Source of the DNA: Candidatus Lindowbacteria bacterium RIFCSPLOWO2_12_FULL_62_27
GTDB lineage: Bacteria > Lindowbacteria > 2-12-FULL-62-27
Length of the DNA stretch: 64,000 nt
NCBI GenBank assembly: GCA_001784175.1
Contig: MFPR01000037.1
Coordinates: 23,959 to 87,958, forward strand
Reading direction: 5' to 3'
In this document: one piece after another, positions 50,267 through 61,047 of the stretch
Layout: each line of letters starts with the position of its first letter
Numbering within the stretch: position 1 is the first letter of the stretch
Translations under genes and position numbers: made by a program
Notes under the pieces: generated by a model
What the model saw: the letters and a program-made list of their open reading frames with translations, nothing else
Databases searched by the model: none
Told to the model about the DNA's origin: nothing

Positions 50267-51544
50267 TTACAGCGTTTTGATCGCCCGGCCCGCGCGGTCC
50301 AGGGTCTGGTCGATCACGTCGTCCGAATGGGACGCGCCGACGAACCACGATTCGAACTGCGACGGCGGCAGATACACGCCCTGCCGGAGCATGGCCCGAT
50401 GAAAGGCCGCGAACCGGCGCGTGTCGCAACGCAGGGCCTCCTCGAAGGACGAAACGTCCCGGTCCGTGAAGAACACCGTCATCATGCTGCCCACCCGTTT
50501 GAGGCGGTGCGGCACGCCAGCGCTCCGAAGGCGCCACGAAATTCCGCGCGCCAGCCGGTTGGCCCTCGTTTCCAACATCGCATACGGGGGATGGGCGCGC
50601 AAGTGCCGCAGGGTGGCGAGGCCGGCGGCGACGGCGAGCGGATTGCCGGACAGCGTGCCGGCCTGATAGACGGGGCCGAGCGGGCTCAGGCGCCGCATGA
50701 TCCGGCCGGGCCCGCCGAACGCGGCGAGCGGCATGCCGCCTCCGACAATTTTTCCGAGACACGTGAGGTCCGGCTCGATGCCGAACAATTCCTGCGCGCC
50801 GCCCGGCGCGACGCGAAAGCCGGTCACGACTTCGTCAAAAATCAGTAGCGCGCCGCACTTGCGCGTGCTGCGCCTCAGCGCCTCCAGGAACCCGACCCGC
50901 GGCGGGATCACGCCCGCGTTGGCCGCAACCGGCTCCACCACCACTGCGGCGACTTCGCGGCCGCGCGCCGTGAGGAACCGCGCGACGGCGCCGATGTCGT
51001 TGTACGGCAGGACCGTCGTGAGCCGCGCGAGCGGCGCCGGCACGCCCGGCGAACTTGGATGGCCGAACGTCGCGGCGCCGGAGCCCGCGGACACGAGGAA
51101 GCTGTCGGCGTGGCCGTGATACCCGCCGGTGAACTTGACGATCCGGTCCCGCCGGGTGACTGCGCGCGCAAGCCGCGCCGCCGACATGAGGGCTTCGGTG
51201 CCGGACGACACTAGGCGGACCTGCTCCACACCCGGAACGCTCGCGCAGATCAACTCGGCAAGATCGACTTCCTGCCGCGTGGCCGCGCCGAACGTCGTGC
51301 CCCGCTTCACCGCGGCGCTGATCGCTTTGACGACGGCCGGATGCGCGTGGCCCAGGATGAGCGGTCCCCAGGAACACATGTAGTCGATGTACTTGCGCCC
51401 CCGCTCGTCGTACATGAACGGGCCCTGCCCGCGCGCGATGAACGGCGGCGTTCCGCCGACCGCGCGAAACGCGCGAACCGGACTGTTGACGCCGCCGGGG
51501 ATTGACCGTGCGGCGCGCGCAAAAAGGTTGGATCCGCGGCTCAT
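50267..51544 (-). CDS. hemL: Glutamate-1-semialdehyde 2,1-aminomutase
   Basis: 425 aa with IPGGVNSPVRAF, DEVVTGFR and LGKIVGGGMP. Confidence 0.95.
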   Translation of the reverse strand: MSRGSNLFARAARSIPGGVNSPVRAFRAVGGTPPFIARGQGPFMYDERGRKYIDYMCSWGPLILGHAHPAVVKAISAAVKRGTTFGAATRQEVDLAELICASVPGVEQVRLVSSGTEALMSAARLARAVTRRDRIVKFTGGYHGHADSFLVSAGSGAATFGHPSSPGVPAPLARLTTVLPYNDIGAVARFLTARGREVAAVVVEPVAANAGVIPPRVGFLEALRRSTRKCGALLIFDEVVTGFRVAPGGAQELFGIEPDLTCLGKIVGGGMPLAAFGGPGRIMRRLSPLGPVYQAGTLSGNPLAVAAGLATLRHLRAHPPYAMLETRANRLARGISWRLRSAGVPHRLKRVGSMMTVFFTDRDVSSFEEALRCDTRRFAAFHRAMLRQGVYLPPSQFESWFVGASHSDDVIDQTLDRAGRAIKTL

Positions 51545-51561
51545 GGTTCTCTACTACCTTA

Positions 51562-53004
51562 TCATCCGAGCAGGCTCAATACGTTCTGGGGCAGAAGATT
51601 CGATTGCGCGAGCATGGCGTTGGCGGACTGGACGATGACCTGGGCCTTTGTGAATTCGATGATCTCGGCCGCCATGTCGGTGTCGCGGATCCGGGATTCG
51701 GCGCTTTGCATCGCCTCGCCGGCGACGCGCGCATAATCGAGCGTGAACCCGAGCCGGTTGATCTCGGCGCCGATGGAGGACCGGATCCGGGTCAGCCGGT
51801 CGATGGCGGTGTCGATGAAGGAAATGGAGTTTTCGGCGGCCGTCTGGGTGGACGCCGAAACATTCCCGGCCAGTCCCAGCGCCCGGGTGCTCACGGGCGC
51901 CTGGAGAGCGCTGGTAAAAGTCTGATTCTTGTTCGCGCCCACATGAAATTTAAACAACGTCCCGATGGCCGAATCGACCTGGGCGGCGAGGTTGGACGCG
52001 AACGTGCCGGCCAGCGACGTGAACGTCCTGCCGCCGGTCGCGTTTGGAACGCCGATGCCGTTGTCGCCGGCCACCTGTGTGGAGGCGTCCCGGTATTCGA
52101 TGTCGGCCGGCAGACCGGGATTGGCGCCGGCGCCGATGATCGCCGCGGACGTGACCACGTCGACCACGATCTCGTTGGACGTCATGAGGGCATTGGTCGA
52201 CGCGAGGATGTCGGCGCCCGTAAAATTGTTGCCGCCGTCGTCGGAGTCCTCGTCGGTCAGGATCATGAAAAACTTCCGGGCGTTCTGGCGAAAGGTGAGG
52301 TTGTTGAGGGCAAACTGGAGCGCGGCCATTCCATTTTCGGTGCCCGAACCACCCGTGCCGACGTTGCCGACGTCGGCAGCGAACTGGCCGGCGTTGCTGG
52401 TGAAGTTTCCAACGACGCTTGTGTTGGCGGCGTTGGAAAATCCGATGGTCGCCGCGCGCGCGTCGACGTTCCGATTGGCGAGTTCGCTGAAAAACGAGGG
52501 CGCGGCGGCTTTCAAGGACGCCTGTTGGCCGCCCATGCTGCCCGAATTGTCGATGATCCAGACGATGTCGGCGGTGGAGTAGTCGAATATCCGGACCTTG
52601 TTGAATTCGGCCGACGTATGAATGCGGTCGATCTCGTCCATGAGCTCGGCAATTTCCTGCTGGATGAGCGCGCGGTCCGAGTTGCTGTAAATCCCGTTGG
52701 CCGCCTGGATCAGCAGCTCCCGCATCCGCTGGAGGATGTCGTGGATATCCTGGATCGCGGCGTCGGCGGTCTGGAGGAGGGACGCGCCGTCCTGGATATT
52801 GAGGGCGGCCCTCTGAAAGCCGCGCACCTGCGCCCGCAGCCGTTCGGACACGGCCAGGCCCGCCACGTCGTCCGAGGACCGGTTGATCCGGTAGCCGCTG
52901 GACAGCCGCTCGAGCGCCTTCGAAAGCGTCCCGTTATTTAACATCGCCTGCCGGTGCGCGAACATCGCCGTGACGTTGTGCTGCACCGAATAGATACCCG
53001 ACAT
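51562..53004 (-). CDS. Flagellin with a vWA-domain insertion in the variable region
   Basis: Flagellin N-domain (LERLSSGYRINRSSDDVAGLAVSERL) and C-domain (ESRIRDTDMAAEIIEFTKAQVIVQSANAMLAQSN). The central segment carries DNSGS...GTENG...LTDEDSDDG. ATG 53004 is preferred; ATG 53031 is possible. Confidence 0.85.
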   Translation of the reverse strand: MSGIYSVQHNVTAMFAHRQAMLNNGTLSKALERLSSGYRINRSSDDVAGLAVSERLRAQVRGFQRAALNIQDGASLLQTADAAIQDIHDILQRMRELLIQAANGIYSNSDRALIQQEIAELMDEIDRIHTSAEFNKVRIFDYSTADIVWIIDNSGSMGGQQASLKAAAPSFFSELANRNVDARAATIGFSNAANTSVVGNFTSNAGQFAADVGNVGTGGSGTENGMAALQFALNNLTFRQNARKFFMILTDEDSDDGGNNFTGADILASTNALMTSNEIVVDVVTSAAIIGAGANPGLPADIEYRDASTQVAGDNGIGVPNATGGRTFTSLAGTFASNLAAQVDSAIGTLFKFHVGANKNQTFTSALQAPVSTRALGLAGNVSASTQTAAENSISFIDTAIDRLTRIRSSIGAEINRLGFTLDYARVAGEAMQSAESRIRDTDMAAEIIEFTKAQVIVQSANAMLAQSNLLPQNVLSLLG

Positions 53005-53101
53005 CACATTTCTCCCGGCCCCATCGTTCATCGACCGGCCGCGGGCGGACGGAGAAACCCCTGCCGTCTGCGGACAGACGGATACTTATGGCCTCAAATA
53101 T

Positions 53102-53139
53102 AAAACAGGCAGGGGCTGCGGTTCAGCCCCTGCCGTTTT
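53102..53139 (-). terminator. Rho-independent terminator (bidirectional hairpin)
   Basis: GGCAGGGGCTG-cggtt-CAGCCCCTGCC is a perfect 11-bp stem flanked by AAAA/TTTT tracts. It sits just downstream of the small minus-strand ORF. Confidence 0.65.
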
Positions 53140-53153
53140 GAGGATCGCGCGAT

Positions 53154-53327
53154 TTAGCCGTACAGAAGCAGATGCCTGACCTCGTCGATCAGCTTGCTCG
53201 CTTCCTCCGGTGTCTTGACCTTGGGCAGCGCGTCGTGCGCCACCAGCCGTTGTTCCCGGGCTTGCTTGACTTCCTTGCTGGGCTCCCGGAACGCGGGCAG
53301 ATTCGAGTGAATTCCCTGGACATCCAT
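53154..53327 (-). CDS. Small hypothetical protein (57 aa), probable flagellar-regulon member
   Basis: MDVQGIHSNLPAFREPSKEVKQAREQRLVAHDALPKVKTPEEASKLIDEVRHLLLYG. GGAGGTG lies upstream of ATG 53327. A sigma-28-type promoter lies further upstream and a terminator downstream. Longer in-frame starts (53450, 53483) are possible. Confidence 0.5.
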   Translation of the reverse strand: MDVQGIHSNLPAFREPSKEVKQAREQRLVAHDALPKVKTPEEASKLIDEVRHLLLYG

Positions 53328-53498
53328 GTCCCTTTCACCTCCGCATGTGGCGTCCGTCGGTCGGACGTGCCTGTATCCATCCGTGGATACGATGTCAGGG
53401 GCAGGAAAGGTCGTGGGTTGGAAAATGAGAGGACCAGTGTGAACCTCCATGTTCGCGCCAACGGCCTTCCCTGGCCTGACCAATACGGTTCATTTTAC

Positions 53499-53526
53499 TC
53501 ATCGGCCGTCGGGCGGCGGTTCTTTA
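53499..53526 (-). promoter_or_regulatory. Sigma-28 (FliA)-type promoter
   Basis: Minus strand reads TAAA-N16-GCCGATGA (atTAAAGAACCGCCGCCCGACGGCCGATGAGT). The spacing is the same as in the flgM promoter. Confidence 0.5.
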
Positions 53527-57835: not shown

Positions 57836-58648
57836 CTATTCCAAAAGCCGGCCGGCGTTCTGCCGGTTGATGTTTCCCTGAGCGGTCCCCAGAAGTCCCG
57901 CGTTTTCCCGAACGGCGTTCAGCGTCAGCTCGACCAGTTCAAGCGCGGCGTCGGCGTCCTCGATTCGGGCCTGGGCGGCGGTTTGACTTTCCCTGGAGGC
58001 GAGCGCGGTATTCAGGGCCGAGTCCAGCCGCCGGAGCGTCGATCCGATGTCGGCCCGCTCGGTCGCGACCGTGTTCACCGCTCCCTGCGCCACGCCGATG
58101 GCGGTCTGGACGCCCGCGGCGGTGGTCACATCGAGGCCGGCCAGACCCAGAGCGTCGGACCGGGCATCGGACAGGATGAGGGTGAGGGTGTCCGGAGCGT
58201 TGGCGCCGAGTTGAACCGTGCCGGAGAATGCGCCGGACAGAAGTTTCTGCCCGTTGAATTCGACGGATTCCGCGAACCGGTCGATTTCCTGCGTGACCTG
58301 ATCGATTTGCGTCTGAATCTGTTTCCGGTCTTCCGCGTTCAGCGTCCCGTTGGCGGCGCGGCCGGACAAATCATTGATTTGGCCGGCGAGGTCCTGGATT
58401 TGTGAGAGTCCGGCGTCGGCGGTCTGCACCAGGGACGCAAAATCCTGGATGTTGCGGCTCGCTACGTTCAGCCCACGGCTCTGGAGGTTGATGCGTTCCG
58501 CAACCGACGCGCCGGCTGCGTCATCGGCGGTTTCCTGGATTCGAAGTCCGGACGCGATGCGGGCGAGTTGCTTGCCGATTTCGGAATGCGTGACCTGGTG
58601 TTGCCGCAGAGCGGAGATCAAATTGTCGTCATGAACTTGGATGGCCAT
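57836..58648 (-). CDS. Flagellin (short, no variable domain)
   Basis: About 270 aa: ...LARIASGLRIQETADDAAGASVAERI..., C-terminus ARIEDADAALELVELTLNAVRENAGLLGTAQGN. ATG 58648 is preceded by GGGAGGGA. Confidence 0.8.
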   Translation of the reverse strand: MAIQVHDDNLISALRQHQVTHSEIGKQLARIASGLRIQETADDAAGASVAERINLQSRGLNVASRNIQDFASLVQTADAGLSQIQDLAGQINDLSGRAANGTLNAEDRKQIQTQIDQVTQEIDRFAESVEFNGQKLLSGAFSGTVQLGANAPDTLTLILSDARSDALGLAGLDVTTAAGVQTAIGVAQGAVNTVATERADIGSTLRRLDSALNTALASRESQTAAQARIEDADAALELVELTLNAVRENAGLLGTAQGNINRQNAGRLLE

Positions 58649-59616: not shown

Positions 59617-61047
59617 ATGAACTCCCCTGCGGACTATTACGCCGATCCCCACGTGCGTGAGCGGATCGCCGAATATTGTGGCGGCGTTGGCGCGGAGCCG
59701 ATGTCTTTTTCGGCGGAGTATCTGGTCGGATACGGCGCCTATCTGAAATCGTCGGCGCACAAGGAATATTTCTCGTCGGACGTTTCCAACTTTCACTGGA
59801 TTCTCGATCACGGCCTCGACATTTTCAGGTCGGTCTGGGACAAGGAGTCGACGGTGGTGGTCTTGGACGTCGAATACTTCAATATCGATTATCCCGGCGA
59901 AATCTATCATGACCCGGCCGCCTGTTTTCTCAAGCTGGAGCCGTTCCATGAAGTCGTTCAGAAAAAATTTCAGGAATGGGGGATTCCCCATCTCACCATC
60001 ATGACCGGGCAGGGCTACCATTTCGCTTTCAAAGTCCTTGCCGATTCGCCGGCCGACCAAACGCTGGAGCGGATCGGCTGCCTGCCCGACTCCCTGGTGG
60101 GCAAGTACACCGCGACGTCCGAGCACCGGCACCGGCGCGTGTCGCTGAAACACGGGCGCGCCTTCGACGGATTGGGCCGGGTCATGGAGTACGTCGGCCA
60201 CGAACTCGTGCGGGCCACGGCGGGCGTCGGGCCGGTCCCGGTCGTGTTTTCGGATATTGCGGTCGGCAGCGTTGATGGGCGGTACCGGGAGGCCATCTCC
60301 GTGGATCTGACGGCCTACGGCGACCCGATTTTCATGAGGGACATTCGTTGCCCCTTCTCCACGCATCAAAAGCACAAAGTACAGGTCTACAAGGTCGGAC
60401 AACGCATCGCGCGGGAAATCCCCGTGCAGATTTCCCTGCCGCGCCGGCCGGATACCCCGCTCCACGACCTGCTGACCCGCCGGCGAAACTTCGCGGCCGC
60501 CGCCGAAGTGGCGAAGACGGGCGACTGCATCCTGCCGGGCGCGGATGATCCGTTCGACAGGCTGATCCGGACGTATCTCGAAAGTCCCCTTGCGGCCTTT
60601 CACCGGGAATTCGATTCGGCCGATCACGACCCCTGGCAGGCGTGGCCGCGCACCTATGACCGGTTGAAACTGTCAAACCTTCCGCCCTGCATCGCCCTGC
60701 CGATCCGGCACCCCAACCCGAGCCTCCTGCAGCCGACGCATGTCCAGAACGTCGTGCGATATCTCTTCATGAACGGGTGGCATCCCAAGCATATCGGCGG
60801 GCTGATCCGGTCCAAATACGAGCGTCCCTACGGCTGGTCGGAGGACTGGACCCATTTCGACGCCTGCAGCCGCGCCAATTTCTGGGCCCGGCTCTACGCC
60901 GGCGCCCTGGCGGCGGGCCTCGACGGTCTCACCGATTTCAACTGCGTGTCCATGCAGGAGCGCCGGCTCTGCCCCAAACCCTGGTGCGGCCACAACCTCG
61001 CCGACATCCGCCCGCGGCCGGCCGCCCTGCGGCGATCGGCAAAGTGA
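59617..61047 (+). CDS. Archaeo-eukaryotic primase (PriS-like) catalytic domain fused to a PriL-CTD-like cysteine domain
   Basis: 476 aa with VVLDVEY (motif I), MTGQGYHFAF (motif II) and ISVDLT...RDIRCPFSTHQKHK (motif III region). The C-terminal half has LPPCIALP plus Cys417, 443, 452 and 457. Assignment is by remembered motifs only. Confidence 0.55.
   Translation: MNSPADYYADPHVRERIAEYCGGVGAEPMSFSAEYLVGYGAYLKSSAHKEYFSSDVSNFHWILDHGLDIFRSVWDKESTVVVLDVEYFNIDYPGEIYHDPAACFLKLEPFHEVVQKKFQEWGIPHLTIMTGQGYHFAFKVLADSPADQTLERIGCLPDSLVGKYTATSEHRHRRVSLKHGRAFDGLGRVMEYVGHELVRATAGVGPVPVVFSDIAVGSVDGRYREAISVDLTAYGDPIFMRDIRCPFSTHQKHKVQVYKVGQRIAREIPVQISLPRRPDTPLHDLLTRRRNFAAAAEVAKTGDCILPGADDPFDRLIRTYLESPLAAFHREFDSADHDPWQAWPRTYDRLKLSNLPPCIALPIRHPNPSLLQPTHVQNVVRYLFMNGWHPKHIGGLIRSKYERPYGWSEDWTHFDACSRANFWARLYAGALAAGLDGLTDFNCVSMQERRLCPKPWCGHNLADIRPRPAALRRSAK

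Follow-up and report, generated by a model that had tools for sequence, protein, structure and literature searches.

A flagellin of Candidatus Lindowbacteria with a von Willebrand factor A domain in its hypervariable region and a conserved putative metal site of the integrin beta type

Flagellar filaments are usually viewed as propellers, with surfaces that vary antigenically and are otherwise functionless. What, then, would a von Willebrand factor A (vWA) domain be doing in the middle of a flagellin? This question is raised by a gene of Candidatus Lindowbacteria bacterium RIFCSPLOWO2_12_FULL_62_27, lying in a stretch of 64,000 nucleotides of contig MFPR01000037.1 (positions 23,959 to 87,958), here called the window. 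An earlier note, made from the letters of the window alone, had read the gene as a flagellin whose hypervariable region is a vWA domain with an intact metal-ion-dependent adhesion site (MIDAS), displayed along the filament for adhesion or ligand capture, and the analysis described here supports this reading in part. We suggest, with a probability of roughly 0.55, that the protein is a true flagellin able to polymerise, probably as a minor or specialised component of a filament built from several flagellins, and that it would present an outward-facing, integrin beta-like vWA domain for cation-dependent adhesion.

A whole vWA domain in the outer-domain position of a flagellin

Three Pfam domains, all above their gathering cut-offs, make up the 480-residue product of the gene (Table 1): Flagellin_N (PF00669) over residues 7–142 with 128.3 bits (cut-off 26.6), VWA (PF00092) over residues 146–272 with 46.4 bits (E 6.7e-12, cut-off 23.8), and Flagellin_C (PF00700) over residues 395–479 with 71.6 bits (cut-off 23). 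A whole vWA domain sits, therefore, in the D2/D3 position of an otherwise canonical flagellin, between the N- and C-terminal helices, as had been claimed from the sequence. The segment for which that claim was made, 52000–52572, corresponds to residues of about 145–335 and falls within the insert, and the motifs quoted for it (DNSGS, a GGSGTENG loop, and TDEDSDD) are all present on translation. Comparing the insert with the Pfam VWA families and predicting its structure had been proposed as checks, and the former gave, besides the VWA match, a second one to VWA_2 with 32.7 bits (cut-off 27). The insert comprises 204 residues with a net charge of -11 and an isoelectric point (pI) of 4.05, the inserts of its relatives are likewise acidic, and the whole translated protein contains no cysteine. 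The open frame spans 51562–53031 on the minus strand, and we prefer ATG 53004 as the start codon, because it has a GGGAGA Shine–Dalgarno sequence 6 nucleotides ahead of it and coincides with the first residue of the orthologues; the alternative ATG 53031 upstream is unlikely.

The top NCBIfam matches of the 480-residue protein are flagellin models (Hag, 208.6 bits), all of them under their own cut-offs. Two other identities were considered and rejected. The hook-associated protein FlgL is not the answer, given that TIGR02550 scores 107.2 bits against a cut-off of 127.2 and that a separate flgL adjoins flgK on contig 20 of the same genome, and neither is flagellinolysin, since the protein has no HExxH motif and the match to NF033876 (flagella_HExxH) reaches 61.6 bits against a cut-off of 205, involving the C-terminal flagellin part only.

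The predicted structure agrees with the domain search. A full-length AlphaFold2 (AF2) model, built on a 9-sequence alignment, has long terminal helices and an alternating beta–alpha core at residues 144–284 with a predicted local distance difference test score (pLDDT) of 80–96, and in Foldseek it matches solved flagellar filaments with a probability of 1.00 and template modelling (TM) scores of 0.83–0.86 on the target, among them the electron cryomicroscopy structures of Leptospira FlaB, Roseburia, Kurthia, B. subtilis, and P. aeruginosa. Because this search is dominated by the flagellin core and tells nothing about the insert, the latter was also modelled alone (residues 128–362), which gave a predicted TM score of 0.73 and a core pLDDT of 85–93, again with alternating beta–alpha elements. 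All 50 of the listed PDB matches of the insert model are vWA domains, each with a probability of 1.00, and the TM scores on single-domain targets are 0.6–0.65; these matches include p44/Ssl1 of TFIIH, integrin beta8 as the second-best, the integrin alpha2 I domain, CMG2/ANTXR2, the vWFA domain of LapA, and Rpn10. With nothing other than vWA domains among the listed matches, the insert model has the fold that had been proposed. In sequence searches, the insert alone found no match among the PDB sequences, and a profile of the insert family reached vWA domains of collagen VI, the integrin alpha2 I domain, and Mfa5, the last as its fourth-best match with an E-value of 7e-5.

The gene is not a misassembly. 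Between 93 and 100% of its sampled words are present in seven DNA sequencing runs from groundwater and soil metagenomes of four studies, the Logan contigs of four of these runs align to the window with 0–1 differences and no joints, and in two of the four a single contig of about 10.6 kb covers the entire gene. The word depth of the gene in the aquifer and soil samples is 6–17x.

The metal site and its relatives

The metal site was compared over 20 flagellin-borne vWA domains and the 145 nearest vWA domains of non-flagellin proteins (P numbers denote related proteins here, and L007, L008, L053, L082, L083, L085, and L086 label related loci). D152 is present in all 20 flagellin vWA domains, S156 in 19, and a Ser or Thr at position 154 also in 19; the D-x-S/T-x-S loop as such is kept in 19/20, and so is D251. 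Position 223 is a Glu in 17 of the 20 and in 141 of the 145 non-flagellin domains, with the neighbouring Thr222 varying among relatives (T, F, E, L, D, A, V, or P). In the profile alignment with the I domain of integrin alpha2, E223 stands opposite T221 and D251 opposite the Asp of TDG. Because E223 aligns with T221, we assign the metal site to the D-x-S/T-x-S ... E ... D type of the integrin beta I-domains. The metal site of integrin beta3 is formed in the same way by D119, S121, S123, E220, and D251. Thus, among the MIDAS elements that the earlier note had listed, the D-x-S-x-S loop and the Asp stood, being conserved in the family, but the Thr did not: Thr222 is too variable to serve as the MIDAS Thr of the alpha-I type, and E223 takes its place. 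The loop, the Glu, and the Asp are retained together in 16/20 flagellin vWA domains, and the exceptions are two domains having Thr, the canonical MIDAS residue, for the Glu, one having GDE for TDE, and a degenerate one, P0161 (DTGSA ... S ... P). In the genome of one relative, a second vWA-flagellin paralogue of about 505 residues with 47% identity, at G003:C290:21547-23061, is probably the same as P0161.

The nearest non-flagellin relatives are multi-vWA proteins of 1,000–4,000 amino acids, some of which also have domains of surface proteins (Cohesin, type IX secretion system tail, or Big_1). The TDEDxDD motif is common to them, with TDED in most of the 145 domains, and since they carry both this motif and the Glu, the signature was not born in flagellins; we considered the Glu and the TDEDxDD loop as flagellin-specific adaptations and ruled this out for the same reason. 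Several of these relatives match Pfam Integrin_beta (PF00362) well over the cut-off (P0007 with 109 bits, P0008 with 87 bits), and the window protein (P0001) has no match to PF00362 at E<=1. Judged from sequence, then, the likeness to integrin beta is one of metal-site type and not of family membership. Integrin alpha and beta I domains do resemble the window protein in that a vWA domain is inserted into another, host domain and has its two termini at the same end, and the beta subunit shares the D-x-S-x-S, Glu, and Asp site, whereas we found no sign in the vWA-flagellin of an adjacent metal-ion-dependent adhesion site (ADMIDAS), a synergistic metal-binding site (SyMBS), or the allosteric helix movement of integrins.

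The acidity of the insert invites another explanation, in which the filament would expose acidic metal-binding domains for cation capture or mineral contact, with attachment to positively charged Fe and Mn oxides or the local buffering of divalent metals in mind, instead of binding a specific ligand. The charge and pI given above, shared in kind by all relatives, would fit this explanation, as would the habitat of groundwater and soil, and mineral adhesion has been proposed for the negatively charged flagellum of Geovibrio thiophilus (Fields et al. 2024, PMC11532411, PDB 9AU6). Nevertheless, a complete and conserved MIDAS is typical of adhesion sites that are completed by a ligand, not of bulk ion exchange, and the non-flagellin relatives are acidic too, so that we consider this explanation improbable.

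Table 1. Coordinates of the vWA-flagellin gene, its parts, and associated features in the window.
Feature	Coordinates	Strand	Details and basis
vWA-flagellin gene	51562..53004	(-)	480 amino acids plus stop; open reading frame (ORF) list, translation, Pfam
N-terminal D0/D1 helices, residues 1-142	52579..53004	(-)	Flagellin_N; AF2 helices 11-131
vWA outer domain, residues 143-346	51967..52578	(-)	Pfam VWA and VWA_2, AF2, Foldseek, profile search
Return linker, D1 beta-hairpin, and C-terminal D1/D0 helices, residues 347-480	51565..51966	(-)	Flagellin_C; AF2 strands 351-365, helix 387-479
MIDAS loop 1, D152-N-S154-G-S156	52537..52551	(-)	Translation and family alignment
Glu223, at the MIDAS Thr position	52336..52338	(-)	Profile alignment to integrin alpha2
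T250-D251-E-D-S-D255-D256, MIDAS Asp and conserved acidic loop after strand beta4	52237..52257	(-)	Alignments
57-residue ORF (MDVQGIH...LIDEVRHLLLYG), family unassigned	53154..53327	(-)	Directly upstream of the vWA-flagellin
Sigma-28-type promoter TAAA-N16-GCCGATGA	53499..53526	(-)	Upstream of the 57-residue ORF; sequence motif
Leader hairpin GTATCC-ACGGAT-GGATAC, GGA in hexaloop (CsrA-type)	53373..53390	(-)	Sequence
Terminator-like hairpin, 11 bp with 9 G-C pairs, then TGTTTTATATTT	53108..53134	(-)	Scan; gap between the 57-residue ORF and the flagellin
Second, minimal flagellin, 270 amino acids, D0/D1 only	57836..58648	(-)	Flagellin_N 102.8 bits, Flagellin_C 35.2 bits

Distribution, selection, and genomic context

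Relatives of the insert are few. A word-indexed search of 5.8 billion proteins returned only 3, a family-profile search about 15 clusters with full-length coverage, and an exhaustive search of 1.84 billion representatives 913 vWA matches, with flagellins making up 6 of the best 150. Among 185,579 species genomes, a pattern-limited scan detected the architecture in four metagenome-assembled genomes, one of them that of L008, labelled Candidatus Lindowbacteria. Most relatives are singleton metagenome proteins. The source phylum, as defined in GTDB, consists of four species in one family, and the gene is present in three of them, one having a second copy. More distantly, P0163 (L083, 4788–6203) is a vWA-flagellin of 471 amino acids with 33% identity, encoded by an orphan gene beside the spoIIIA operon, which points to a spore-forming Firmicute as its source and shows that the architecture extends to a distant lineage. 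P0183, P0217 (Synergistaceae), and P0244 were rejected as vWA-flagellins because they lack the motifs, even though they align over the full length. At L053 (MAG263, 550–2095), a vWA-flagellin is split into the overlapping frames 550–1212 and 998–2095, by a frameshift or an assembly error.

In a quick tree of 165 vWA domains, made from a 193-column alignment, the window protein falls in a well-supported clade of 8 flagellin vWA domains, apart from the other flagellin-borne ones. The tree needs 9 changes between the flagellin and non-flagellin labels, at least 5 of them on supported branches, compared with 19 when the labels are shuffled. A single capture event for all flagellin-borne vWA domains is unsupported by these 9 changes, and the tree hints at several captures of vWA domains by flagellins, 193 columns being weak evidence in either case.

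The locus is syntenic in L007, L008, L082, L085, and L086, which belong to related groundwater genomes, in the shared order flagellin-2, DoxX, DUF1802, QueG, MMPL (on the opposite strand), a 57-residue ORF, the vWA-flagellin, CBS (in some), HemL, TatA, and TatC. No orthologue has a broken reading frame, many D0/D1 residues do not vary within the family, and the C-terminal PQNVLSLLG is kept. The vWA-flagellin is under purifying selection, the ratio of nonsynonymous to synonymous substitutions (dN/dS) in the insert being roughly 0.25–0.43, with dS saturated. Compared with L007, the closest genome-derived orthologue, the insert is 67% identical and D0/D1 67–69%, and compared with L008 the insert is 42% identical vs. 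71–74% for the core, the insert thus diverging faster.

These two comparisons bear in opposite ways on another explanation, which we regard as less probable than the preferred one, namely that the MIDAS binds an acidic residue on an adjacent subunit (one in the conserved DEDxDD loop, say) or on an adjacent filament, so that a cation-dependent lattice would stiffen the filament or bundle the flagella. An insert as conserved as the core, as it is against L007, is what a packing interface would show, the insert is very acidic, with the conserved TDEDxDD loop lying right beside the MIDAS, and a change in motility on outer-domain dimerisation is established for other flagellins (PMC8931119). On the other hand, in the more distant orthologue the insert has changed far more quickly than the core, and the TDEDxD signature and the Glu, being common to the non-flagellin relatives, did not evolve for a filament lattice.

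The source genome, of 4.39 Mb and 94% complete, has the machinery for a flagellum and several other flagellins to build it with. A Pfam search finds FlhA (839 bits), FliD_C (157 bits), FliS (129 bits), and CsrA, and FlgK, FlgL, FlgN, and FliW were assigned by eye from the translations of the ORFs and their positions. There are six Flagellin_N matches, which are the two in the window, two flagellins of about 310 amino acids on contig 20, adjoining csrA, fliW, flgL, flgK, and flgN, one on contig 2, and FlgL itself; four flagellins are therefore without insert. The second flagellin of the window, to which the earlier note had already drawn attention as lacking an insert, has both Pfam flagellin domains and orthologues in L007, L008, and L082. 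Besides the full-length FlhA on contig 1, three extra matches at C35:32617-34978 and C30:169433-170107, inside open frames of 434–940 amino acids, are confined to the half of the FlhA (FHIPEP) profile that is C-terminal and cytoplasmic.

Directly upstream of the vWA-flagellin lies the small ORF of 57 codons, which occupies the same position in all five related loci examined (L007, L008, L082, L085, and L086). Its family comprises 16 clusters besides that of the window, with lengths of 56–72 amino acids and 65–86% identity, and is more conserved than the flagellin; six further members lie on contigs that match vWA-flagellin contigs in nucleotide count. Pfam gave no match for this ORF, either as 57 amino acids or as a longer frame of 109. 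The small protein could be a dedicated partner of the vWA-flagellin, as a private chaperone or regulator.

The small ORF is preceded by a motif of the late flagellar sigma-28 type. TAAA-N16-GCCGATGA occurs only 11 times in the 4.39-Mb genome vs. about 2–3 expected by chance from a composition-based estimate, one of the 11 lies about 196 nucleotides upstream of the contig-2 flagellin, and TAAA-N16-(G/T)CCGAT recurs in the corresponding position in L007, L008, and L082. Between this promoter motif and the ORF, the leader forms a hairpin with GGA in its loop, which is kept in L007 and L008 (with the loop AAGGAT) and in L082 (with a U–G wobble change), and a second GGA, conserved in these three loci too, is contained in the Shine–Dalgarno sequence of the ORF. 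Flagellin leaders such as that of hag in B. subtilis classically have two CsrA sites arranged in this way, and this leader would likewise bind CsrA. The CsrA-type control is placed here on the small ORF and not on a flagellin.

The small ORF and the flagellin gene lie about 21 nucleotides apart in L007 and L086 and are therefore surely co-transcribed in both; the terminator-like hairpin that stands between them in the window (Table 1) is absent there. The gap of the window, 53005–53153 on the minus strand, has in addition a second hairpin, CCGTCTG-TCCG-CAGACGG, followed by AGGGG..TC(T/C)CCG and partly conserved in L008, L082, and L085, and also a GGA-rich Shine–Dalgarno region. The sequence 'GTCGATGA' at about -35 from the flagellin ATG has no TAAA partner on inspection by eye.

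From these features one may go further, and propose that the two genes, for the 57-residue protein and for the vWA-flagellin, are a dedicated module tied to the late flagellar checkpoint by the sigma-28 promoter and a CsrA/FliW-type leader, working as a switch to an adhesive filament. The small protein would keep the vWA domain unfolded or export-competent, or else cap its MIDAS, and once the flagellum is complete a stretch of filament would be switched from a plain propeller, made of the four insert-less flagellins, to a rope for cation-dependent adhesion or bundling. We consider this extended proposal unlikely as it stands.

On the downstream side, the stop codon of the flagellin is only 17 nucleotides from hemL (51544–51562), with tatC further downstream on the same strand, and a terminator scan found none in between; in L082 and L085 a CBS-domain gene is located between the vWA-flagellin and hemL. 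It would be unusual for transcription of a flagellin gene to run on into housekeeping genes. Elsewhere in the window, an ORF of 476 amino acids at 59617–61047 on the plus strand, with no Pfam match, is 67% identical to its counterpart in L008, where it has the same syntenic place beside rsmI.

From flagellin subunit to adhesive filament

Our preferred reading, that of a filament subunit with an outward-facing vWA domain for cation-dependent adhesion, may be put as a sequence of steps. The vWA-flagellin is probably transcribed with the 57-residue gene, or just after it, from the sigma-28 late flagellar promoter and through the CsrA-type leader. The protein would then be exported unfolded via the flagellar type III channel, as its lack of cysteines and an insert of about the size of D2 plus D3 in Salmonella FliC would allow, and be inserted beneath the FliD cap, where it would most likely be one among five kinds of flagellin in a mixed filament. 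Since the N- and C-termini of a vWA domain lie together, opposite the MIDAS face, the domain would stand on D1 with its metal site pointing outward. D152, S154, S156, E223, and D251 would hold Mg2+, Mn2+, or Ca2+, an acidic group of the ligand would complete the coordination, and the filament would thereby adhere, in a cation-dependent manner, to surfaces, polymers, or other cells in aquifer sediment.

Several observations weigh against this reading. The confidence of the models is moderate, the mean pLDDT being 75 over the whole chain and 69 in the insert model, and residues 256–263 and 287–316, the latter a loop conserved among the closest orthologues only, are unreliably modelled. The degenerate MIDAS of P0161 means that the metal site is not indispensable in every member of the family. 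In this genome, the terminator-like hairpin separates the vWA-flagellin from the sigma-28-driven small ORF, and a scan of the gene's strand over 53004–53150 for the sigma-70 consensus gave no promoter that could serve the flagellin in its stead. The search of sequencing runs returned no RNA-seq run with the gene. The gene also lies outside the main late-flagellar cluster on contig 20, for which reason its product may be a minor or a non-filament component.

This last point leads to a rival that we hold to be rather unlikely, in which the protein leaves the cell through the flagellar apparatus without polymerising, to act as a vWA adhesin or as a signal that is either soluble or loosely attached. 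FlaC of Campylobacter is a secreted flagellin homologue of this kind. The orphan locus, away from flgK, flgL, and fliD, would be in keeping with such a role, the four other flagellins could build the filament by themselves, and the 57-residue neighbour could be a private chaperone. In contrast, D0/D1 is of full length and strongly conserved, with its many invariant residues and PQNVLSLLG kept, and it is modelled as a normal filament fold with no hint of lost polymerisation surfaces. Likewise, the lack of the gene in any RNA-seq run, and the one related paralogue without an intact MIDAS, could mean that we are looking at a silent or decaying flagellin paralogue, the product of a fortuitous domain insertion with no present function; this is very improbable in view of the intact frame in every orthologue, a dN/dS well under 1, the synteny over several genera, the conserved flagellar promoter motif, and the identical copies found in several samples.

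Integrins apart, the known systems closest to the vWA-flagellin belong to other bacterial surface filaments. In flagellinolysin (FliA(H) of Clostridium haemolyticum), a globular domain replaces D2/D3, as here, and it was shown that such a folded functional domain of the hypervariable region is displayed on assembled, working, motile filaments (PMC5595980), with the difference that the domain of flagellinolysin is a metallopeptidase and ours a predicted binding module. The best functional analogy is PilB of S. sanguinis, a filament subunit with a grafted vWA domain whose MIDAS binds Mg2+ or Mn2+ and is needed for adhesion (PMC8179133). PilB differs in belonging to a type IV pilus, in having its vWA domain appended and not inserted, in being a low-abundance tip subunit, whereas a flagellin could reach thousands of copies, and in its canonical MIDAS, as opposed to the Glu in the Thr position of the vWA-flagellin. 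Mfa5, a minor subunit of the fimbriae in Porphyromonas gingivalis, and other vWA adhesins associated with pili also carry a vWA domain on a surface filament, but they are accessory or tip proteins of pili with other export routes, not subunits of a rotating propeller. Finally, the flagellin of Geovibrio thiophilus, an environmental anaerobe, shares the acidic outer domains and differs in that their folds are beta-rich.

The architecture as such is not new. Eckhard et al. (2017, Nat Commun 8:521, PMC5595980, Table 1) counted 21 cases of the vWFA domain in flagellin hypervariable regions, where it was the eighth most frequent domain, giving the count only, with no sequences, structure, or function discussed. 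The main text of the 2024 survey of 682 flagellin outer-domain clusters (PMC11532411) does not mention vWA, MIDAS, or integrin, and our full-text literature searches found no study characterising a flagellin with a VWA, vWFA, or von Willebrand domain. The earlier note, which was not aware of a vWA flagellin that had been characterised, agrees with these searches, but the kind had already been catalogued. The present protein shares with those of Eckhard et al. a vWA domain within the flagellin hypervariable region, and differs in coming from a candidate phylum sampled later, by metagenome-assembled genomes from groundwater, and in belonging to its own vWA clade of 8. What our analysis adds to an already catalogued, uncharacterised kind of flagellin is its conservation across a candidate phylum, a metal site of the integrin beta type inherited from giant multi-vWA proteins, and a conserved 57-residue partner gene under sigma-28/CsrA-type control.

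The case is a tractable one. The domain is small, cysteine-free, and 204 residues long, its clear candidate metal ligands are D152, S154, S156, E223, and D251, natural controls exist in the four insert-less flagellins of the same genome and in the MIDAS-degenerate paralogue of a relative, and the conserved 57-residue gene is at hand as a candidate partner. Flagellin has proved itself as a scaffold for display, and a vWA insert that is tolerated in nature is therefore of interest, too, for the engineering of adhesive or ligand-capturing filaments in laboratory strains. If the two-gene module were real, functionalised flagella would have a regulatory and chaperone logic that is new, and that is ancestral to the candidate phylum. 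Should the preferred reading of an outward-facing, cation-dependent adhesive subunit be true, a filament with as many as thousands of integrin-like, metal-dependent binding sites would be to adhesion what the surface of flagellinolysin filaments is to enzymatic activity, with a bearing on the ways in which uncultured bacteria of the subsurface attach to minerals, polymers, or partner cells.

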